DNA from: Parcubacteria group bacterium Gr01-1014_31
Lineage (GTDB): Bacteria; Patescibacteriota; Patescibacteriia; Buchananbacterales; GWA2-38-13
Direction of reading: 5' to 3'
NCBI GenBank assembly: GCA_007376135.1
Contig: VMFR01000001.1
Span: forward strand, 452,360 to 516,359
DNA length: 64,000 bases
The notes below the pieces were generated by a model. The model was not told the origin of the DNA. It saw nothing but the letters and a program-made list of their open reading frames with translations, and made no database searches. How positions within the stretch are numbered: position 1 is the first letter of the stretch; each line of letters starts with the position of its first letter. A program made the position numbers and the translations under genes. Of this stretch, positions 3,060-61,537 are shown piece after piece.

Positions 3060-4925
3060 TCAGTAGGCTTCGCACCCCAGCCTGTCGCTGGTCGGGTCAA
3101 CCCCCAAGGATGCCCCGGGGTACGGCGGCCGTGCGCCCCCCAGCAGCTGGAAACGGTTGATGAAATCCGCGTCCTTGAGATCCTTGACCCCGTCGTCGTT
3201 GGCGTCCATCGCGTCGTCGCAGTTCGGATACACGTAGCACAGCCCCTGGTTGACCTTGCACTGGAGGGAATTTGGCTGCTCGCAGCCGGGCGCGGCCGAC
3301 AGGCACGTCACGTGGTCTTTCACCGACTGTCCGTCGGCAATATCCACGCGGCCGTCGTGGTTGGCGTCGCCGCGGATGAACGCCACATCGGTGTGATTGG
3401 TATTGCCGAGGGCATACCCCGGCTGTGCCGCCGGCATCGCGTTGACCGCCTTGCTGTACGGGAACGTATACACCTGAACATTAAGCCGTCCCCGGGTGGT
3501 TCCATAATCAGAACGGAAATAATCAACGACGACTTCAAGCGTGCGGTCGCGGTTTAAATCGGCCACGGCGACACCGACGAGCGCGGAGTAGACAGGTGAT
3601 TGCCAGATCGCCACGCCGCGCTGGTCGAAAATAACGACTCGGGTCTCATCCATGCTCCCGACCGATTTTCGCACGATTGCGATCACCTCTTCGGCCGGCC
3701 CATCATCCATGTTGTGCAGTCCAACAATGGACACTCTATCTGCGGCGCCGTAACGCACCGTCAGCTGCGGCTGGCCGCTCAAAGAGAACGACTTTACGGT
3801 ATTATGGCCATCAGTGACTACTATTGCGTTGTTATGGACGACTGGGCGGCCAATTACCTCATCGTAGGTCGGCGTAATAGCGGCGACCCATAACGGGGTG
3901 CCATCCTGATCGAGGGCAACAAGCCTCCCATCGTCGTCGACATAGACCAACTCGGTATACAAATCGCTGTCGACGTTCGCCACAGCAACCTCGGACGACG
4001 CACCGCTGCGGCTCCACAGTCTTTTCCCGTTACCATCAATGACAAAGAACGTTGAGAGATTATTCGCAACGATCTGATGCCGCCGGCTTTCCACATCCTG
4101 CAGCTGAGCGGCGACGGGGGCGATCGACCCGCCGGCAAACTCCCAGATCTGCGCTCCTTCAGGGCTGAACGCCACAGTTTTCTGACGTTCAGGGTTACCA
4201 TTGGTAGCGACAACTTCCAAACGGTCATCACCGTCTAAATCCATGACGACCGGTATCAGATACGAGCCCCCCGCCGACCAAAGTTTTCGCCCGCTGGCAC
4301 CGTCCAGCGCCACCAACCCGGCATTCGTAGTGCCAAATGCGGCGTACACCACCTCCTGCGTGCCATTGCGGTCAAGGTCGGCGACCACCGGAGAACGGTA
4401 CACGGCCCGGCCGATGGCGTCCGCACGCCACAACTCACGGCCATTGGAAGAGATCACCACGAGCTCATACTGGTCGGATTCGCCCGCCAGGAGCACTTCG
4501 AGCTGTCCATCGCCGTTCACATCCGCGACCACCGGGTGCGGGGAGTACACCGAGCTGCCATCGGCACCCTGGAAAGACCACAATGGCCGAGCCACTTCCT
4601 GGCAGCTCGCGGTGCAACCCACGCCCGGCGGGTCGCACTGCTCGCTTCCCTCCACCAGACCATTGCCGCACACGGCCGTGTTCACGTTGACGTTGGTATT
4701 GCCGAAGTTGGTGATGGTGCCGTAGTTCAGCCCGCTATTCACCGCGGTTCCAAGCGAAGCCATCCGGAAACGGCCGGGATATAAGCCCTTGGCCACGTTG
4801 ACACCCAGCAGCGCCGCATAAAATCCGCCGGCCACGGGCAGCACCGTCAACGCAACGAGGGTCAAAAATGCGGTTGCGACAACTGGCTTGGTGCCGGTCT
4901 GCGTTTCCAAGAATGGACGTAGCAT
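3060..4925 (-). CDS. secreted FG-GAP repeat protein with N-terminal Cys-rich repeat and C-terminal dockerin-like Ca-binding repeats
   Basis: Motifs DLDGDDRLEVV and DLNRDRTLEVVVD (FG-GAP). C-terminus has DANHDGRVDIADGQ and DANDDGVKDLKDAD (dockerin-like DxNxDGxxxxxD x2). VCGNGLVEGSEQCD is a Cys-rich repeat. The track start 4952 lies inside the putative -10 box, so the start is placed at the internal ATG at 4925. Confidence 0.5.
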   Translation of the reverse strand: MLRPFLETQTGTKPVVATAFLTLVALTVLPVAGGFYAALLGVNVAKGLYPGRFRMASLGTAVNSGLNYGTITNFGNTNVNVNTAVCGNGLVEGSEQCDPPGVGCTASCQEVARPLWSFQGADGSSVYSPHPVVADVNGDGQLEVLLAGESDQYELVVISSNGRELWRADAIGRAVYRSPVVADLDRNGTQEVVYAAFGTTNAGLVALDGASGRKLWSAGGSYLIPVVMDLDGDDRLEVVATNGNPERQKTVAFSPEGAQIWEFAGGSIAPVAAQLQDVESRRHQIVANNLSTFFVIDGNGKRLWSRSGASSEVAVANVDSDLYTELVYVDDDGRLVALDQDGTPLWVAAITPTYDEVIGRPVVHNNAIVVTDGHNTVKSFSLSGQPQLTVRYGAADRVSIVGLHNMDDGPAEEVIAIVRKSVGSMDETRVVIFDQRGVAIWQSPVYSALVGVAVADLNRDRTLEVVVDYFRSDYGTTRGRLNVQVYTFPYSKAVNAMPAAQPGYALGNTNHTDVAFIRGDANHDGRVDIADGQSVKDHVTCLSAAPGCEQPNSLQCKVNQGLCYVYPNCDDAMDANDDGVKDLKDADFINRFQLLGGARPPYPGASLGVDPTSDRLGCEAY

Positions 4926-54296: not shown

Positions 54297-54650
54297 CTAC
54301 AGGCTTATGAACAGTGCGGAGACCAGGTTCACAATGCCGCCGACCAGCAGGCCCGTGCCGATCCCCAGGTGTTTTTTTTGGACTTTCAATACGGCCAGCA
54401 AGACCGCCCCGCCGACCACCAGCACGAACGGCGAGACCAGATAAAAGAAGAACGCGTAGTAGGCGGCGCCGATCTCGGCGTCCGGCTGCCGCATTCCCAG
54501 GTAGCCGACGATAGAGGAAACCACGCCGGGCATCAGACCGAGGATGAACGGCAAACTCTTGGCGAACCGCCCCGGCAGCATGGGCATCGGCGGTATAGGT
54601 ACGGGTACGTTTTCCATAGGCAAAAAAATTTCTGTTATTCTACTTAACAT
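54297..54650 (-). CDS. hypothetical small membrane protein
   Basis: Three hydrophobic helices. No motif recognised. Confidence 0.3.
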   Translation of the reverse strand: MLSRITEIFLPMENVPVPIPPMPMLPGRFAKSLPFILGLMPGVVSSIVGYLGMRQPDAEIGAAYYAFFFYLVSPFVLVVGGAVLLAVLKVQKKHLGIGTGLLVGGIVNLVSALFISL

Positions 54651-54657
54651 TTCATCA

Positions 54658-54686
54658 TTGACATACTACCAGATTCAGCGTATATT
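54658..54686 (+). promoter_or_regulatory. sigma70-type promoter TTGACA-17-TATATT for the alpha-CTD-like gene
   Basis: Followed by an AGGAGG Shine-Dalgarno sequence at 54729-54734 and a TTG start at 54740. Confidence 0.5.
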
Positions 54687-54739
54687 ATCCTTTCGCAATT
54701 CTTGCACTTTCGACAACCACATTTTGATAGGAGGCTCCC

Positions 54740-55177
54740 TTGGCGAATAGTCGACTTGAGCGGGTCTTTGACGAATTCCGAGCGTTGATTCAAGGTGGCC
54801 GACTGGATGAGGCGAGCGTCTACTGGTGGCTTCTTGAAGCCTCAGGGATTGCCAGCACGCGGCCAATCAAGAAACGCAGGGAGAGCGTCACGGGTCTCGA
54901 AGAATACGATGTCGATGTGCTACGCACCCCCGCCATTCAAATCCCATCCTTCCGATGGTCAGGACGGGCGCAGACCCTGCTCGCCTCCATCGAACGAGAA
55001 CAGGGACAGCCACTCCTCCTCCACCACCTCATCCAATACACCGAAATGGAGCTGATGAGCTTCCGCGGGACGGGCATGACCACAATCAACGAAGTCAGGA
55101 CCAACCTTGCAACCCTCGGGCTAAGCCTCGGTTCCATTATCGGGATCGAACTCGCCAAACGAATCCTCTCCATGTAG
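54740..55177 (+). CDS. stand-alone protein with an RNA polymerase alpha-subunit C-terminal-domain-like (HhH) module
   Basis: C-terminus LIQYTEMELMSFRGTGMTTINEVRTNLATLGLSLGS is close to the RpoA alpha-CTD [35 protein letters not shown]. The N-terminal 90 aa are unrelated. Confidence 0.45.
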   Translation: MANSRLERVFDEFRALIQGGRLDEASVYWWLLEASGIASTRPIKKRRESVTGLEEYDVDVLRTPAIQIPSFRWSGRAQTLLASIEREQGQPLLLHHLIQYTEMELMSFRGTGMTTINEVRTNLATLGLSLGSIIGIELAKRILSM

Positions 55178-55244
55178 CGGTAGCCCCCGAACCTAAGGGC
55201 CGACAGCTACGAACCAGCCGCCACACACAAGTGGCGGTTTTATT

Positions 55245-57653
<2,409 letters not shown>

Positions 57654-57749
57654 AGCAATAAACTACCCGCCGTCTCCTGCCGGCGTTCCTGCTCATTTTA
57701 GCACTGTCTGACCCAGCGGCGCCAACCAATCGTTTCGCTGCTCACTGCG

Positions 57750-57841
57750 GCCGCCAGGTTGAAAATCCGCCGAAAGAAAGCTCCGGGATCGGTTGGAAGT
57801 AGGGTTCGGCAATCAAAATCTTGGGCCACCGGGTAGCCTAT
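57750..57841 (-). pseudogene. remnant copy of the 3' end (last about 30 codons + stop) of the GT-C membrane protein gene
   Basis: Minus strand encodes (AT)RWPKILIAEPYFQPIPELSFGGFSTWRPQ*. The current gene end at 59783-59875 encodes (VI)RWPKRLIAEPYFRQVPELSFGGFSTWRVR*. Differences are mostly synonymous third positions. Confidence 0.55.
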
Positions 57842-58819
57842 TCAGGCGGAACGAATCTGGCCCTGGTAGCGCTGATATGCTTGTTTTTTGAGCAGAAGTC
57901 GTCGCGCCCTTGTTGGGCTATACGCACCTCTTTTTTTTAGTAAATTTATTACGCTATCTCTCCTTGAACGGCTTTTACTCCCCATCGCCAATTTATTTCT
58001 CCCTAATTTCAAGCCGAGATGCTCGGCCCCGCTAGCGTAGGTGCGTATTTTCGTTTTTGCAGGGTTTACTGGAAGTCTCTGATTATTATCAAAATCAGAA
58101 AGGATTTTTTCCACTATTTTTACGACTGCCGAAATTTTTTCCTGGCTCACTCTGCTTGCGCTGATACCTATGTCGTCTATAAAAATCGCCACTCGAGGAT
58201 CATATTTTTTAAGGAGCTTTTTTACTTCCCGATCAAGGTGAATAAAGGTATCTAAATTACACCACACGGCTAATCGAGTAGAGGTTGCGAAACCTCGAGC
58301 AAGAGTTTTTTCTGTAGACATAGAACCCTTTTGGCCAACGGGAACGCAACATAGACTGGCCAATAGCCGTGATGCTCGGGGGCTACAGCCGCATTTTCTA
58401 TAGAAGAAAAAAAATACTCTCTGTTCACGAATCTGTTCAAAAAAATGCGTGATGTCGAGACTAGCTAAAATCCTCCCTCTCTCTTGCCCCAGTAGACTAC
58501 GGGCTGCTTGTATATGACTTCTGCCTGTCATGCCGCCAAAAATATAATTGGGTACGAGACGATCATGAGGTGCAAGAACCTTCTTATCAATCCGTTCGAG
58601 AAGCACGCCCAATGGAGTGCGGGCCGCACTACGCACAAACTTTCCTCTGTTAGGTTGAGAATTCTCGCTATTATCGCGCCAGTAATAATCAAAGTTACGA
58701 ATCACATCATTAATGAGTGTCAGTGCCTGCGGATAAGGTAAGGCGCTATCGCTAATCGTTTTTGCCAACTCATTCTTGCTACCAATCCTCAATCGCGGGT
58801 ATCGCGGACGGCTAAACAT
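57842..58819 (-). CDS. reverse transcriptase (retron/defence-associated RT-like, 325 aa), AT-rich
   Basis: RT motifs: IFGGMTGRSHIQAARSLL (2a), LDITHFFEQI (3), CVPVGQKGSMS (4, LPQGxxxSP-like), RVAIFIDDIGIS (5, xxDD), and NPAKTKI (6). No maturase or endonuclease domain. Confidence 0.7.
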   Translation of the reverse strand: MFSRPRYPRLRIGSKNELAKTISDSALPYPQALTLINDVIRNFDYYWRDNSENSQPNRGKFVRSAARTPLGVLLERIDKKVLAPHDRLVPNYIFGGMTGRSHIQAARSLLGQERGRILASLDITHFFEQIREQRVFFFFYRKCGCSPRASRLLASLCCVPVGQKGSMSTEKTLARGFATSTRLAVWCNLDTFIHLDREVKKLLKKYDPRVAIFIDDIGISASRVSQEKISAVVKIVEKILSDFDNNQRLPVNPAKTKIRTYASGAEHLGLKLGRNKLAMGSKSRSRRDSVINLLKKRGAYSPTRARRLLLKKQAYQRYQGQIRSA

Positions 58820-59135
58820 AGCGCTTTAAATATTTTGCCCTCACATCGATCAGATACAGCTGTAGTTGACTACCAACGTCAATCAGCGATTTTTCTAGCT
58901 GGGATAATTTTTTTGTGGATGAGGGACTATCGAGCAACAAGAACGGCGTAATCGAACTGGGTTGTACACCCAATTTGTCAGCAAGTTTGATGATAAAATT
59001 TTTGGATACCTCTTTTTGACCCGATTCGATCATCGCAACAAGGACAGTTGATACACCTAAAACATTGGCAAATTCACTCTGCGTTAAATCACTTTCATCC
59101 CGAATTTTTTTTATCAACTCCGGTAGAGTATACAT
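58812..59135 (-). CDS. XRE-family helix-turn-helix protein
   Basis: LTQSEFANVLGVSTVLVAMIESGQK is the Cro/C1-type HTH. Overlaps the RT start by 8 nt. Confidence 0.7.
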   Translation of the reverse strand: MYTLPELIKKIRDESDLTQSEFANVLGVSTVLVAMIESGQKEVSKNFIIKLADKLGVQPSSITPFLLLDSPSSTKKLSQLEKSLIDVGSQLQLYLIDVRAKYLKRYV

Positions 59136-59149
59136 AATGTAAATATGAC

Positions 59150-59600
59150 TAAGGGGTGGCTACATGAACCGCATGATGTCCATCACGATGCGAATGATCC
59201 AGATAATGATCCGAATGATTCGCAGAATGTAGACCAGCATACGTGCTAGCCACCCCTACACACGGAACGCCCAGACTAGAGTTTAGATTGGAGAAATGAG
59301 TTGCATTCATAGATAAGGGGTTTATTAATTAACCGACCTTTACCCAGGTGACTGATTACTCCAAAGCTTATGGCCATTTATTCCGAAATGCGGCGTTCCG
59401 GCGGAACTCACGGCCATAAGCTGTGAGCAATCATTAGACATCGACCTAATATCTTACAAGCACTTCCCTGCCCCTCGTCCTCCCCATCATCTCCTACACA
59501 TCTACTGGTTGTTTTTTTGAGGCAGATACTTTCGCTTGAGACAGCACCCGGGATTCCCCGGGGCAATAATTCATCCCCCCTACGGCACTAGCAGGAGAGA
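59150..59600 (-). ncRNA. candidate structured non-coding RNA region upstream of the HTH-RT operon (retron msr/msd-like or RT-associated ncRNA)
   Basis: 11-bp inverted repeat AGGGGTGGCTA…TAGCCACCCCT (59151-61 and 59247-57) brackets GGATCATT repeats. Further hairpins: GCTTATGGCC…GGCCATAAGC with an inner GTTCC-GGC-GGAAC; CCCGGG-attc-CCCGGG; AGACAC-ttaac-GTGTCT. No ORF of at least 60 aa with a plausible start. Confidence 0.35.
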
Positions 59601-59782
59601 GATCCAGACACTTAACGTGTCTAAAATCATCGGATTCAACGGCCATCACTCTACTCCGTTTTCAATGTACCGTGATTGAATCATATACTTTTCGTATATG
59701 AATGTCAACTGACTTATCCACAGAGCAAAACACGAGCTAGGGTGCCGCGAAGAGTAAAAATATTGACTTTGGTAAGAACATT

Positions 59783-61537
59783 TTACCTCACCCGCCAGGT
59801 AGAAAACCCACCAAAGGAAAGCTCGGGTACTTGCCGGAAGTACGGTTCAGCGATCAACCGCTTCGGCCAGCGGATGACCTCTTCGCGGCCGCCGTTCGGA
59901 TAGTCGTCGAGCCACAGGTACAGGAGGTAGTCGTCCCCGTCGCCGTACAGGATGAGTTGTTCGATGGGATCAAATACGTTCTTGCGGTGGAACCACTCGG
60001 AAAATTGCGCCGGGGTTTTCGCCAGCGCGAGTATGCGCAGATAGCGGAGGCGCTCGGAGAATCGGGCGGCCGGATGCGAGTAGTGCTGATTGTAGGAAAT
60101 GAACTGTGGCAGCGCAACCTGCGCCTGGAGCGGCGGGAAGAAACTCAAGGCCGTCCTCTTGGCGTCCTCCGGATGCGTGCGGAAATAGTCAGCAAAACGG
60201 GCGGCGGTAACGCTCCCCTGCCGCACTGCTGCTAAGCGCACGGCGGTGGACTCCTGGTCCAGCCACAGGCCGAACGGCAGCGATACGGCAATCGCGATCC
60301 AGGCGAGCAAAAATTTCGTCGCCCCCGTCTGCGGAACGGCGGCCGAAAATCGTTCCCGCAAGACCGCGGCAACGCGGGTGAAACCCTGGGCGGGTGCGCT
60401 TCCCGCGATCCAGACGGTCAGTCCATAGGCGGCGCCGTACGCCAGAATAATCTCCCCGAAAAACGTAAAGCCGCGCGCGCCCTGGAACGGCGCGTCGCCA
60501 AACATCGTCGCTACCAGCGTAACGGCCTGCCAGACGTAACACCCCAACAGCAGCTGCAGCGCGGGACGGATCAGCGGCCGCCGGCGATACGCGACCAACG
60601 CGACCAGCCCGACCCAGAGCCAGGCGCTGCGGGGCGTGAACTCCACGGGCGGAAAAAAATTGAGATCCGAGGCGATAAAGAACGCCGGCTGCCAATTCTC
60701 CATCCCATGCCGGACGTAGCTTGCCGCCAACGGCCACCAGTACCAGAGGGACCCCAAGGCGACAACACCCCCGATCGCTCCCCAGGAAACAAGCTCGCGC
60801 GCCAGCGACCGCGGATTCCGCCAGGGCAAGAACGTCAGCACCGCGATGCCGACCATCACAAACCACAGGTAGTACGTCGTGAACAACGCCGCCCCCAGTA
60901 CCCCGATGGCTAGCATGTGCAGCAACTGCCGCTCGCTGCCCGCCAAAAAACGCCGCACCACGGTGAACCACAAGAGAACCCCCAAAGCGGAGGCAAACTC
61001 ATACGGTTTGGCCAGCACCGACGGAAAATCCACGGCCAGGAACGGGGTGAGCGTCAACAGCAGCGGAAAGAGCGGATTGGCGATGGGCCCGTCCGAGTCA
61101 CGCCGGACCGTGCGCCAAAACCACCAGGAAAGCAGCGGAATGACGAGGGACGCAATGACCCCGGCAAGCTTGGCCGCCCCAACCCCCGTCAGACCAAACA
61201 TTCGGGCGATGCCGCCGATCGAATAAAACCACAGCGGCGGATAAAACGCCGGCAATTTGGCATACGTAAGATCATGCCCGATGCCGTCGGTAATGACCCG
61301 CTGGTAGAACGCCGTGGTCAACGCTTCGTCCCCCTGCAAGCCGCCGAACGGCAGAGGGGTTTGCCAGAGTATGACCACCTGCAGGGTAACGATGGCAGCG
61401 ATCACCGCACCCGCCGCCAGCAGGCATCGCCGCGCGATCTTGCGATTCGTCCATAGGCCCACCCCAAGCACAGCAAACAACAGCATCTTGCCGAACGCGA
61501 GGATATGAATCGTGGACGGCTGGAACGGTGGCAGCAT
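59783..61537 (-). CDS. polytopic membrane protein, GT-C-fold glycosyl/arabinofuranosyltransferase-like
   Basis: About 12 TM helices then a soluble C-terminal domain. Weak resemblance to AftA/GT39-type transferases. Its 3' end is duplicated downstream of the RT cassette. Confidence 0.4.
   Translation of the reverse strand: MLPPFQPSTIHILAFGKMLLFAVLGVGLWTNRKIARRCLLAAGAVIAAIVTLQVVILWQTPLPFGGLQGDEALTTAFYQRVITDGIGHDLTYAKLPAFYPPLWFYSIGGIARMFGLTGVGAAKLAGVIASLVIPLLSWWFWRTVRRDSDGPIANPLFPLLLTLTPFLAVDFPSVLAKPYEFASALGVLLWFTVVRRFLAGSERQLLHMLAIGVLGAALFTTYYLWFVMVGIAVLTFLPWRNPRSLARELVSWGAIGGVVALGSLWYWWPLAASYVRHGMENWQPAFFIASDLNFFPPVEFTPRSAWLWVGLVALVAYRRRPLIRPALQLLLGCYVWQAVTLVATMFGDAPFQGARGFTFFGEIILAYGAAYGLTVWIAGSAPAQGFTRVAAVLRERFSAAVPQTGATKFLLAWIAIAVSLPFGLWLDQESTAVRLAAVRQGSVTAARFADYFRTHPEDAKRTALSFFPPLQAQVALPQFISYNQHYSHPAARFSERLRYLRILALAKTPAQFSEWFHRKNVFDPIEQLILYGDGDDYLLYLWLDDYPNGGREEVIRWPKRLIAEPYFRQVPELSFGGFSTWRVR

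Follow-up and report, generated by a model that had tools for sequence, protein, structure and literature searches.

A divergent Type VI retron in a Parcubacteria genome, flanked by two diverged copies of a glycosyltransferase gene end

What is an AT-rich block encoding a reverse transcriptase (RT) and a helix-turn-helix (HTH) protein, and how did it come to lie between two diverged copies of the end of one gene? The block is found in a 64,000-nucleotide stretch of a Parcubacteria genome (the window), at the 3' end of a GT-C/AftA_N-like glycosyltransferase gene (GT, 59783..61537, minus strand). An earlier note had described this AT-rich RT and HTH cassette and read it as an eroded island or a new RT-containing integrative module, with a resemblance to retrons or defence-associated RT (DRT) systems. 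All the features that it described are present, and the block, judged by its sequence, is a Type VI retron of a divergent CPR branch, complete from approximately 59723 to 57842 (-) in this Parcubacteria (CPR) genome. Type VI retrons are known anti-phage systems in which an HTH protein and an RT are combined with a structured RNA and a tiny toxin peptide. This one has probably arrived together with a foreign GT end through homology-anchored recombination, a C-terminal displacement that left the native end orphaned. The features are listed in Table 1.

Table 1. Features of the retron and of the gene ends that flank it, in window coordinates (asterisk, stop codon).
Feature	Position	Strand	Basis
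Live GT 3' end, foreign-type repeat copy, ...EEVIRWPKRLIAEPYFRQVPELSFGGFSTWR(VR*)	59792..59884	-	repeat family D1
Non-conserved spacer, ~60 nt, GT stop codon to retron unit	59723..59782	-	conservation profile
Consensus DnaA box TGTGGATAA (-) / TTATCCACA (+)	59714..59722	-	sole perfect match in the 64-kb window
Promoter TTGACA-17-TATGAT, sigma-70-like	59680..59708	-	promoter scan, 11/12 positions
5' domain of the retron RNA: leader, H1 and H2	59574..59673	-	covariation, invariant bases
Variable RNA segment	59445..59573	-	low conservation, high gap fraction
Conserved hairpin H3, CUUAUGGCC ... GGCCAUAAG	59367..59420	-	RNAalifold
Leader ORF ('frame A'), 53 codons	59149..59310	-	overlaps the SP ORF in the -1 frame
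Long-range stem H4	59152..59257	-	RNAalifold, covariation
Small protein (SP) ORF, 26 aa, MLVYILRIIRIIIWIIRIVMDIMRFM*	59160..59240	-	codon-phase entropy, 36 loci
Cro/C1 (XRE)-type HTH protein, 107 aa	58812..59135	-	Pfam HTH_3, PADLOC HTH_VI
Retron RT, 325 aa	57842..58819	-	PADLOC RT_VI, Pfam RVT_1
Orphan repeat, displaced native GT 3' end, RWPKILIAEPYFQPIPELSFGGFSTWRPQ*	57742..57843	-	collinear with the L005 empty site

The cassette has a GC content of 0.442 against 0.62 in its flanks, the biggest GC deficit among 55 related loci; along the block GC stays at 0.40-0.47 and the flanks are at 0.60 or more (44% for the cassette versus 62% for the genome). The GT C-terminus is encoded twice, in direct repeats at 57751-57843 and 59792-59884, as the earlier note had recognized. 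The repeats are 93 nt long and 74% identical, and a BLAST of flank against flank aligns them with E = 1.7e-13. The live copy reads RWPKRLIAEPYFRQVPELSFGGFSTWRVR*, while the orphan starts at the RT stop codon and has an in-frame stop upstream (E*ATRWPK). Over an 81-nt core the two differ at 20 positions, of which 15 are third codon positions, with four amino-acid changes and no stop, in keeping with the mainly synonymous differences that had been claimed. Twenty random substitutions would give at most four amino-acid changes with a probability under 1e-5, and because of this substitution pattern we conclude that both copies evolved as coding ends.

The retron is absent in three syntenic relatives. 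At the L005 site the GT is followed by 170 nt and then by zwf-gnd, with no insert, and L005 is collinear with the window from 57815 through the spacer and into zwf-gnd, i.e., it represents the empty site. Other small inserts occupy the same spot in L002 and L003. L002 also joins a live-type tail, GTGAGGTAAAAT (VR*TAAAAT), with other cargo behind it, to an orphan-type body, a combination that no single simple event explains. The orphan differs from this sister genome at 10 of 81 positions (8 of them third positions), whereas the live end differs from it at 17/81, and from L005 at 16 positions. Since relatives lack the retron, the orphan fits the empty site, and the orphan is the closer of the two ends to L002, the retron came with a foreign gene end. 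The comparison of genomes thus shows the block to be an insertion, the live gene end to be foreign and the orphan to be native, and it bears out the earlier proposal that the insert brought its own homologous gene end.

Most likely the retron arrived by homology-anchored recombination, and not as an RT-driven or integrase-driven module. Specifically, the incoming DNA would be a tract that carried the GT gene end and the retron, and possibly the whole MTase-NUDIX-GT block, and that came from a Parcubacteria lineage related to this one but distinct from it. The join would have been made by homologous recombination on the GT side and by an illegitimate or short-homology event at the RT stop codon, leaving the native GT 3' end downstream as the 93-nt orphan (homology-facilitated illegitimate recombination), and such an acquisition would require neither an integrase nor RT activity. 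Synonymous-codon identity to L002 is ~0.62 from the 3' end of RibD through the GT and 0.72-0.76 on either side (Fisher P = 3e-5), and four-fold-site identity is 0.55-0.63 in the suspected tract versus 0.66-0.73. On its left, the tract ends where L002 and L005 have a 123-aa ORF that the window lacks. Lower synonymous identity to the left of the retron could also reflect gene-specific rates, and the same genome pairs are mosaic elsewhere (pgi 0.54-0.69, PEP-utilizer 0.87-0.95). No donor genome was found, and the nearest of 420 RT homologues is 66% identical.

The strongest competing explanation, which we nevertheless regard as unlikely, is that a single crossover within the GT 3' end integrated a 2,041-bp circle made up of one GT end and the retron, and was carried out either by a recombinase working in trans or by RecA through the 93-nt homology. 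In that case the repeats would be attL and attR, and the cassette would be able to excise and re-integrate. In favour of this, the repeats flank the cassette exactly, the right one beginning at the RT stop codon; the L002 tail with its different cargo looks like a reusable attachment site; and diverged flanking repeats recur at three other loci (L013, L048 and L019), a recurrence that counts for the displacement reading as well. In ~9 of ~60 loci, large serine recombinase genes are found no more than 5 kb from the retron, and at L019, where a recombinase gene end is present three times, it is the recombinase's 3' terminus itself that has been duplicated. However, no recombinase is present in the 64-kb window or among the neighbouring genes, the window has no tRNA, and no relatives occur on IMG/VR viral contigs. 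A common att site is absent, because the duplicated sequences of the window (GT) and of the other loci are unrelated, and a crossover within 93 nt does not predict the elevated synonymous divergence across GT, NUDIX and MTase. The comparison with integrative islands at tRNA genes or gene 3' ends leads to a similar result: insertion at a 3' end, restoration by an element-borne end and flanking direct repeats are shared, but neither the cassette nor the surrounding 64 kb holds an integrase, and the repeats lack an identical core, with 26% divergence along their full extent. The earlier note was right that no integrase is present; its eroded island and its integrative module are both unsupported, as no finding ties the RT to integration.

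Far less probable still is that the GT 3' end was duplicated locally in tandem, with the retron then inserted between the copies and the downstream copy decaying. The copies are indeed in direct orientation and just 2 kb apart, but the pattern of substitutions described above is that of purifying selection in the two lineages alike, as opposed to decay (P < 1e-5), the orphan has fewer differences from the sister genome (10/81) than from its own neighbour copy (20/81), and it shares the derived KIL with L002 while the live copy retains the ancestral KRL.

Homology-anchored displacement of a C-terminus, or illegitimate recombination facilitated by homology, was put forward for T6SS effector-immunity arrays and for Rhs/CDI loci (PMC5361080; PMC3240628). 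The likeness lies in a homology anchor in a conserved upstream gene, a new 3' end that comes with cargo, and a resident 3' end that is pushed downstream as an orphan; orphan arrays are possible, as at L019. The differences are that the end displaced here belongs to a housekeeping-type membrane glycosyltransferase, that the old and new peptides are nearly the same, and that the cargo is a retron and not a toxin/immunity pair.

The assignment of the cargo starts from its two proteins. RVT_1 is the only Pfam domain in the RT ORF (E = 3.7e-11), without a maturase or endonuclease domain, as had been stated; the catalytic FIDD is intact (58183-58172), and all invariant columns of a 26-sequence family alignment are retained. 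Among the PADLOC profiles RT_VI scores best (8.4e-30), followed by RT_III-A (3.8e-16), with a modest 102 bits for RT_VI here versus 346 for a canonical member. In the PDB the only relatives are the retron Ec86/Ec83 RTs, and the Yersinia Type VI RT is 27% identical (E = 5e-18), including the N-terminal SKNxLA motif. The HTH ORF matches Pfam HTH_3 (E = 3.7e-12) and, as its top PADLOC profile, HTH_VI (3.6e-13), and is 33% identical to the canonical Type VI retron HTH. Its end overlaps the start of the RT, as previously described, by 8 nt.

That the RT belongs to another class, as a degenerate group II intron protein or an Abi or DRT (UG) enzyme with an unrelated HTH neighbour, is hardly credible. 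There is weak generic similarity to NCBIfam Drt3a (3.7e-6) and group_II_RT_mat (5.3e-6) and to PADLOC RT_UG17 (9.8e-7), but these scores are far under their own cut-offs and far under that of RT_VI, and an HTH homologue lies directly 5' of the RT in ~60 of 67 loci, i.e., the pair is conserved as a unit. No group II ribozyme was detected with Rfam, the best match (E = 4.1, 14.7 bits against a threshold of 49 bits) lying outside the block. The retron half of the earlier comparison stands, on the RT_VI and HTH_VI matches and the canonical Type VI architecture, and the DRT half does not. Diversity-generating retroelements (DGRs) are known in Patescibacteria genomes, and an RT does lie here beside a pair of ~90-nt repeats, one of them forming the 3' end of a surface-related gene; but a DGR with the GT 3' end as variable repeat, the orphan as template repeat and the RT mutagenizing the GT C-terminus is almost certainly wrong, since the mismatches are not adenine-specific (orphan C9 T6 A6 G3, live G9 T6 C6 A3) and mostly synonymous, the orphan is a native gene end found in an RT-less relative, and the RT is classified as a retron RT. 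The group II intron, Abi, DRT and DGR readings are all rejected.

The 67 related loci are almost all from CPR, as are most of the RT homologues that bear a source name (annotated Patescibacteria/CPR). Common to the loci are the HTH-RT pair, the promoter with a palindrome, covarying RNA helices and a small ORF. In the window a sigma-70-like promoter with DnaA box and palindrome is followed by ~540 nt of structured 'hybrid' RNA, whose 3' portion contains the hydrophobic 26-aa SP ORF, and then by HTH and RT. The Type VI retrons (classification of Mestre et al. 2020; Retron-Vpa2, Retron-Eco12, Retron-Sen3, and likewise the retron of Yersinia phage vB_YenM_56.17) share the order structured RNA, SP, Cro/C1 HTH and RT with an HTH/RT overlap, as well as an SP, hydrophobic and helical, that is encoded inside the structured transcript and has its ribosome-binding site sequestered in a stem; the inverted repeat that flanks the SP ORF here resembles IR1-IR2 in Sen3. 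For the Yersinia phage (RT_VI 2.6e-104, HTH_VI 6e-36) the SP-HTH-RT order and overlap are those of the window, and the proteins align with the window proteins. In contrast to these systems, the SP of CPR loci has 20-29 aa instead of 54-79 and is essentially the hydrophobic helix only, and it sits within a longer overlapping leader ORF.

The 647 nt upstream of the HTH gene (59136-59782) had been called a structured non-coding region. The structure is confirmed: the RNA (546 nt) folds with -204.7 kcal/mol (z = -6.5, 0/100 shuffles as good). The region is not non-coding, since it holds the SP ORF (59240..59160) and the leader ORF (59310..59149). Conservation across 51 loci climbs only from about 59730, and nucleotide similarity to the nearest relative, L075, starts at 59723. 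The RNA opens with the leader ACGGUAC (59673-59667); G59670 and UU59665-59664 are invariant in 32/32 sequences. Hairpin H1 (59623-59617 / 59611-59605) has compensatory changes in 6 pairs, and the loop of H2 (59602-59593 / 59581-59574), GUGCCGU at 59588-59582, is complementary to the leader, a match that is specific to each locus (permutation P = 0.006). This 5' domain is a candidate msr-msd-like region, which may serve as the template for reverse transcription. Beyond it the variable segment ranges from 18 to 222 nt in relatives.

By RNAalifold, compensatory changes occur in 8 of the 9 pairs of H3 and in all nine consensus pairs of H4. Together, H3 and H4 pair at 92.9%, versus 75.2% for shuffled and 25-51% for slid alignments, with 143 double-change cells where 39 are expected (0/500 shuffles as high). 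H4 wholly encloses the SP ORF: its 5' arm AGGGGUGGCUA (59257-59247) is the Shine-Dalgarno (SD) sequence of SP, and its 3' arm UAGCCACCCCU (59162-59152) consists of the SP stop codon and the next 8 nt. Across 36 loci the codon-phase entropy is 1.24, 0.59 and 1.57 for positions 1, 2 and 3, and because of this pattern we take the SP frame as the coding frame. An ATG lies 5-11 nt past the SD arm in 32/36 loci, giving peptides of 20-29 aa, and the hidden hydrophobic ORF has ~23 aa across relatives. Such peptides have a Kyte-Doolittle hydropathy of ~1.35 and a hydrophobic moment of ~0.65, with an acidic residue conserved close to the C-terminus, and the SP, a putative toxic effector, is similar to the hydrophobic helix at the C-terminus of the 54-aa SP of vB_YenM_56.17.

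The leader frame is the one annotated by gene callers. It forms an ATG-started ORF of 47-74 codons in 35/36 loci, with the stop always 11 nt past the SP stop, and the 22 codons 5' of H4 are free of stops in this frame in 27/36 loci, against 4/36 for each other frame. The peptide is not under selection, because third codon positions are its most conserved; the ORF may be coupled to SP or HTH translation. In the hok/mok/sok type I modules a hydrophobic toxin ORF is likewise overlapped by a longer leader ORF, and long-range RNA pairing sequesters the toxin ribosome-binding site. The short hydrophobic ORF, the overlapping leader and the sequestered site are all found here, and because of that sequestration toxin translation would be controlled by RNA refolding. 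Unlike in hok/mok/sok, no antisense RNA is evident at this locus, and the controlling factors are expected to be the RT, its ssDNA and the HTH protein.

Nowhere in the upstream region is conservation higher than over the promoter and palindrome (0.69-0.75). The palindrome, TATAC-N5-GTATA at 59698-59684, lies between and over the promoter hexamers and is probably the operator of the HTH protein; allowing up to two substitutions it is called in 50/56 loci, with ~6 of the calls off-position or degenerate. The distance from promoter to HTH is steady across loci (roughly 570-700 nt). The DnaA box abuts the -35 hexamer on its upstream side, and the conserved retron unit has its left boundary there. 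With at most one mismatch, a box is located 23-29 nt 5' of the palindrome in 22 of the 50 palindrome loci (~1 expected), in either orientation, and one further locus matches at -57. Among perfect boxes in all fetched loci, ~17/22 are at the promoter position. The box is absent at the promoters of the Yersinia and Pasteurella retrons and goes without mention in the two Type VI papers.

If the element works as its homologues Retron-Vpa2 and Retron-Sen3 do, its RT, HTH protein and RNA would assemble into a complex. In the uninfected cell SP would stay silent with its ribosome-binding site sequestered, and the HTH protein may add an antitoxin or repressor role. Phage infection would then alter the accumulation of RT-made ssDNA or lift HTH control, so that the stem opens and SP is produced, halting the infected cell (abortive infection). 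Two different mechanisms have been published for Type VI retrons, and according to the Sen3 preprint the one CPR Type VI retron examined in a census that it cites yielded no detectable ssDNA in E. coli. Less expected for a retron of this type are the consensus DnaA box at the promoter, which recurs in about half of the CPR relatives, and the conserved leader ORF that overlaps the putative toxin ORF.

The region comes from a bacterium of the candidate phyla radiation (CPR), Parcubacteria group bacterium Gr01-1014_31, and all of its genes are on the minus strand. Between the genes for a membrane glycosyltransferase (GT) and a fused zwf-gnd protein, a block with 40–47% GC, compared with approximately 60–62% for the genome, carries a helix-turn-helix (HTH) gene and a reverse transcriptase (RT) gene that overlap by 8 nt, as the earlier note had described. 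The block is bracketed by direct repeats that lack a long identical core and both encode the GT C-terminus: the GT gene has its live 3′ end in the upstream copy, and the downstream copy, the orphan, begins at the RT stop codon and encodes a near-identical peptide, preceded by an in-frame stop.

To classify the two proteins we compared them with PADLOC, Pfam and NCBIfam models. The best PADLOC model for the RT is RT_VI (8.4e-30, 102 bits, profile positions 4–267 of 279), with RT_III-A as runner-up (3.8e-16), and the HTH protein is best matched by HTH_VI (3.6e-13). Pfam reports RVT_1 and HTH_3 as the only domains, so that the RT has neither a maturase nor an endonuclease domain. NCBIfam gives only sub-threshold matches of the RT to retron, Drt3a and group II models, and the solved structures (PDB) matched by the RT-family profile are those of the retron Ec86 and Ec83 RTs only. 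The same order and overlap of genes are found in the P2-like Yersinia phage vB_YenM_56.17 (a 54-aa ORF, a 105-aa regulator and a 'retron-type' RT), a textbook Type VI system by its scores (RT_VI 2.6e-104, HTH_VI 6e-36), to which the present locus is 33% identical in the HTH protein and 27% in the RT (E 5e-18), where an N-terminal SKNxLA motif is shared as well. Two recent preprints describe a Type VI retron as having four parts: a structured RNA, a toxic small protein (SP), a Cro/C1 HTH protein and the RT. Judged by profile and architecture, the RT belongs to the Type VI clade; a Cro/C1-type gene lies directly upstream of and overlaps it, and the upstream RNA is predicted to be structured with the ribosome-binding site of the SP sequestered. 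The block is a complete and apparently intact Type VI retron of a CPR-specific branch.

Coordinates of the locus (window positions, unless a related locus is named)
Feature	Position	Strand	Remark
GT, membrane glycosyltransferase, 584 aa	61537..59783	-	Pfam AftA_N
Segment without long ORF, 647 nt	between GT and HTH gene	-	
HTH gene, 107 aa	59135..58812	-	Pfam HTH_3
RT gene, 325 aa	58819..57842	-	Pfam RVT_1
Fused zwf-gnd	57653..55245	-	802-aa ORF
Direct repeat pair, 93 nt, 74% identity	57751–57843 and 59792–59884	-	brackets the block
Perfect DnaA box, TTATCCACA / TGTGGATAA	59722–59714	-	directly upstream of -35
Promoter TTGACA-17-TATGAT	59708..59680	-	11/12 consensus positions
Stem H1	59623–59617 / 59611–59605	-	5′ domain, conserved with covariation
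Stem H2, pyrimidine/purine hairpin	59602–59593 / 59581–59574	-	after H1 in most loci
Stem H3	59420–59412 / 59375–59367	-	RNAalifold
Stem H4	59257–59247 / 59162–59152	-	RNAalifold
Leader ORF (frame A), 53 codons	59310..59149	-	frame chosen by gene callers
Candidate SP ORF, 26 aa, MLVYILRIIRIIIWIIRIVMDIMRFM	59240..59160	-	hydrophobic, coding signature
Other cargo at the GT/zwf-gnd spot	L002 9756–10464; L003 7083–8220		
Flanking repeats at other loci	L013; L048; L019		64 nt, 81%; ~120 nt, 79–82%; ~195 nt, 72%
Diverged recombinase-end copies in L019	3845–3995; 6408–6572; 9254–9370		one live, two orphans

The earlier note had left open a retron or a defence-associated RT; the first stands, as Type VI, and the second does not, because the relevant models are weaker by orders of magnitude (RT_UG17 9.8e-7; Drt3a 26.5 bits against a cut-off of 200), which also disposes of UG and Abi RTs. 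A degenerate group II intron protein is contradicted from both sides: TIGR04416 reaches 25.8 bits against a cut-off of 300 with no maturase domain, and the best Rfam match (group-II-D1D4-4, E = 4.1, 14.7 bits against a threshold of 49) lies in zwf-gnd, outside the block. The Rfam scan of 57000–60500 (E up to 5) gave only noise, with neither retron msr nor group II intron families. A diversity-generating element does not fit, since the repeat mismatches involve all four bases rather than adenine specifically and are mostly synonymous.

In Retron-Vpa2 the SP coding sequence lies within a 'hybrid RNA' with its ribosome-binding site sequestered, and phage-induced msDNA derepresses SP translation; in Retron-Sen3 the HTH protein is the antitoxin and the trigger is loss of RecBCD activity. 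By analogy with these two systems only, we infer that the present retron would synthesize msDNA and defend against phage, acting through SP toxicity under HTH/RT control. The Sen3 preprint reports no ssDNA for the CPR Type VI representative assayed in E. coli.

We found 420 RT homologues, of which the best 120 are 50–66% identical; most have no source name, and the named ones are mostly annotated as Patescibacteria or CPR. Scanning one genome per species gave 67 loci, almost all from CPR, and in about 60 of these the gene immediately preceding the RT is a homologue of the HTH gene. The locus is part of a large coherent Type VI clade. A scan of IMG/VR with the RT alignment returned no relatives of this clade, and hence no evidence for its carriage by phages, and tblastn against phages and plasmids found only distant Proteobacterial and Bacteroides retron RTs (25–30% identity). 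The nearest RT relatives, L075 and L076, are on contigs too short to show a donor context. Some members of the clade are on contigs binned outside CPR, in MAGs of Micrarchaeota (L015), Planctomycetota (L019), Gammaproteobacteria (L029, L039, L040 and L043) and Bdellovibrionales/Bacteriovorax (L045, L048 and L049); these are either mis-binned CPR contigs or genuine transfers to hosts or neighbours.

Aligning 51 loci shows that conservation begins at 59730–59723, about 60 nt past the GT stop, and, with a variable segment in between, extends as far as the HTH gene. The most conserved stretch is the promoter, whose distance to the HTH gene is near-constant. Between and over its hexamers lies a palindrome, TATAC-N5-GTATA, called with at most two substitutions in 50 of 56 loci (about six of these off-position or degenerate), which is likely to be the operator of an HTH dimer. 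The DnaA box beside this promoter is the only perfect one in the 64-kb window, and the nucleotide similarity to the nearest relative starts exactly there. A box with at most one mismatch is found 23–29 nt upstream of the palindrome, in either orientation, in 22 of the 50 palindrome-called loci, where about one is expected, and at -57 in one further locus; the DNA fetched for all loci contains 22 perfect boxes, approximately 17 of them at the promoter position. Overall about half of the CPR Type VI loci have a promoter box, among them L007, L012, L014, L020, L026, L028–L030, L034, L036, L039, L051, L054, L058, L069 and L075. The two Type VI papers make no mention of DnaA. If functional, the box would tie a defence system to the replication initiator.

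The earlier note had called the upstream region, of about 650 nt, structured and non-coding. Structured it is: as RNA, the 546 nt between the predicted start and the HTH gene have a folding energy of -204.7 kcal/mol, with a z-score of -6.5. But it also contains a small ORF with a coding signature. The stems H3 and H4 covary: 17 of their 18 consensus pairs have compensatory changes, 92.9% of cells are paired compared with 75.2% after shuffling and 25–51% with the partner slid along the same alignment, and 143 double-change cells are observed where 39 are expected, values reached in none of 500 shuffles. The most informative element is H4. Of its two arms, the 5′ one is the Shine-Dalgarno sequence of the SP and the 3′ one consists of the SP stop codon and the eight bases after it, so that the putative toxin ORF is exactly enclosed. 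There are two copies of the motif ACCCCUUA on the minus strand, one just upstream of the leader ATG (59314–59321, only partially conserved) and one as the end of the H4 3′ arm (59150–59157). Both copies, members of repeat family D6, are complementary to the Shine-Dalgarno arm, which suggests alternative pairings.

The 5′ part varies too much in length for RNAalifold to return a consensus from the MAFFT alignment, and a re-cut alignment recovered H1 alone; H2 and its pairings were therefore assessed sequence by sequence. By eye, the H2 loop is complementary to the first transcript bases over 6–12 nt in about 15–17 loci, with locus-specific sequences. The energies of these self-duplexes beat those of non-self pairings (permutation P = 0.006), although a simple longest-match test is weak (26% compared with 14% with at least 6 nt). 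G 59670 and UU 59665–59664 are invariant in 32 of 32 sequences. We propose 59673–59574 as a candidate msr-msd-like part, in which the start of the transcript and the H2 loop would serve as a1/a2-like repeats. The variable segment was also considered as one long msd hairpin, but it closes in only 3 of 36 loci and shrinks to 18–39 nt in some, which makes it unlikely to be an essential template.

Two overlapping small frames lie directly 5′ of the HTH gene in nearly all loci. The longer one was first taken as the SP and then dropped, since conservation in it is highest at third codon positions. In the shorter frame the column entropy over 36 aligned loci has a period of three (1.24, 0.59 and 1.57 at codon positions 1, 2 and 3), and this minimum at the second and maximum at the third position identify the shorter hydrophobic peptide as the selected product. 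In 32 of the 36 loci an ATG 5–11 nt past a G-rich Shine-Dalgarno-like motif opens a peptide of 20–29 aa that is amphipathic and highly hydrophobic and in which an acidic residue is conserved close to the C-terminal end. This candidate toxin resembles the hydrophobic C-terminal helix of the Yersinia SP, but is much shorter than known SPs. In L036 (SP region ~4560–4660) the toxin ORF is interrupted, with only 14 open codons ahead of the conserved stop, and L023 lacks the ATG where it usually stands; the toxin of both retrons may have been inactivated.

The overlapping frame is itself conserved as an ORF: it has an ATG followed by 47–74 codons in 35 of 36 loci, starts 41–71 nt upstream of the Shine-Dalgarno motif in 34 of those 35 (110 nt in the other), overlaps the toxin ORF in the -1 frame and always stops 11 nt past the stop codon of the SP. 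In 27 of 36 loci no stop interrupts its upstream part, whereas each other frame is open there in 4 of 36. We read it as a leader that would be translated but whose peptide is immaterial, a layout like that of mok/hok, with a leader ORF over a toxin ORF. No Shine-Dalgarno sequence is obvious for the HTH gene itself, which starts a few nucleotides after the SP and leader stops; this makes translational coupling from leader to HTH to RT plausible.

That the retron was inserted here can be read from three syntenic relatives, found via the GT protein, all of which lack it at the GT/zwf-gnd spot. In L005 (61% GT identity) only 170 nt separate the two genes, and the alignment runs uninterrupted from the orphan (57815) through the spacer into zwf-gnd, so the orphan is the original gene end, still in place. 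This is the empty site that the earlier note had suggested looking for, and it contradicts an ancestral arrangement. In the sister genome L002 (82% GT identity, 88% nucleotide identity in zwf-gnd) the spot is instead occupied by about 700 nt of unrelated sequence that includes a 118-aa ORF, and in L003 by two small ORFs, of 99 and 105 aa; none of these ORFs matches a family in Pfam or PADLOC.

The polarity of the repeats was determined in their 81-nt coding core. The orphan differs from L002 at 10 positions (8 third-position, 2 amino acids) and the live end at 17; the live end has 16 differences from L005 and 20 from the orphan, 15 of them third-position, with four amino acids changed. Twenty random substitutions would leave only four amino-acid changes with P < 1e-5, so both copies evolved as functional gene ends in separate lineages before they met, and local duplication and decay of the GT end is contradicted by the same pattern. 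At one site the live end reads KRL, as do most other homologues, and the orphan reads KIL, a derived state found in L002 as well. By these comparisons the live end is the foreign copy, and the retron was acquired horizontally together with it, much as the earlier note had supposed in saying that the insert brought its own homologous gene end. L002 combines an orphan-type body with a live-type tail, GTGAGGTAAAAT, followed by its different cargo, which suggests repeated exchange here, and the spot behaves like a hotspot of variation. Alignment gave no support for an orphan remnant in L002.

The foreign sequence appears to extend beyond the repeat. At amino-acid-conserved codons the identity to L002 is about 0.62 from the RibD 3′ end through the MTase, NUDIX and GT genes, compared with 0.72–0.76 for the neighbouring genes to the left and right (Fisher P = 3e-5), a drop to be read in the knowledge that synonymous rates vary among genes and that the two genomes are mosaic in other places too; four-fold-site identities agree. 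By the same measure the orphan is at the 'vertical' level (19/25) and the live end at the 'block' level (13/22). The low-identity span is from about 62,900 to 57,500, and its left edge coincides with a 123/124-aa ORF that is present in L002 and L005 and missing in the window. The simplest reading is arrival by homology-facilitated illegitimate recombination: the MTase, NUDIX and GT genes of a related lineage, together with the retron, would have replaced the resident genes as one tract of approximately 5.6 kb, by homologous recombination on the left and by an illegitimate or micro-homology join at the RT stop on the right, leaving the final 93 nt of the resident GT gene stranded. An outcome of this kind has been termed 'C-terminal displacement' at Rhs, CDI and T6SS loci (PMC5361080, PMC3240628).

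A Campbell-type single crossover of a 2,041-bp circle, whose junction would read ...CGTTCCGCCT|GAAGAGGTCATCC, is a less likely alternative, because it does not predict the raised divergence upstream of the repeat. An integrase-borne element, whether the eroded island or the new RT-containing integrative module of the earlier note, is unsupported, since the repeats are only 74% identical with no long identical core. In agreement with that note, the cassette and its surroundings proved free of integrases, transposases and tRNAs; the called neighbours include no Pfam recombinase family, and tblastn with a large serine recombinase had no match in the 64-kb window. A scan for tRNA and tmRNA in the window region and seven loci was likewise empty, which leaves no tRNA attachment site.

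Homology-anchored displacement may have left traces elsewhere. Of 56 loci tested, L013, L048 and L019 also have diverged direct repeats around the cassette. Those of L019 are copies of the 3′ end of a gene for a large serine recombinase (Pfam Resolvase, Recombinase and Zn_ribbon_recom), with the retron between the first and second copies and other small ORFs between the second and third; the locus is an array of displaced gene ends. The window has no serine recombinase homologue, but about nine loci have one no further than 5 kb from the retron. We found no common motif at the cassette junctions across loci; the recurrent GTTCGAAC in the flanks of L019, L048 and L075 is apparently no att site but the coding sequence for a conserved peptide, (I/V)RT(F/L), at recombinase 3′ ends.

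The PEP-utilizer gene (~51,100–49,800) is 0.87–0.95 identical to that of L002 at synonymous codons, and the two genomes are recombination mosaics. The zwf-gnd ORF joins zwf to a short gnd (G6PD_N, G6PD_C, NAD_binding_2 and part of 6PGD), a fusion kept in L002 (810 aa) and L003 (801 aa). Between it and the next gene is a segment of about 600 nt with lower GC (54650–55245; 0.48–0.56), containing a 145-aa ORF on the opposite strand (54740..55177, +) that is missing at the equivalent place in L002 and has no match in Pfam and PADLOC scans.

Retrons are a major anti-phage family and a source of genome-editing tools, and Type VI is the least understood type, its two studied members differing in mechanism. 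To our knowledge, very few defence systems have been described in the ultra-small CPR bacteria. Type VI retrons as a kind were already known; what is added here is a CPR-specific member with a foreign gene end. It is possible, though on balance we doubt it, that the CPR members form a distinct streamlined sub-type, in which a ~23-aa toxin would be made only once the stem pairing its Shine-Dalgarno sequence with its own stop codon opens, a conserved overlapping leader ORF would couple translation in the manner of mok/hok, a consensus DnaA box would wire the promoter to the replication initiator beside the HTH operator, and the cassette would spread without an integrase by homology-anchored displacement of gene 3′ ends. 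The comparison yields a compact design that can be tested, with its box and putative operator at the promoter, its covarying helices and its stem-enclosed candidate toxin, and the locus offers a clean natural case of a defence cassette entering a streamlined genome without an integrase while the flanking gene is kept intact.
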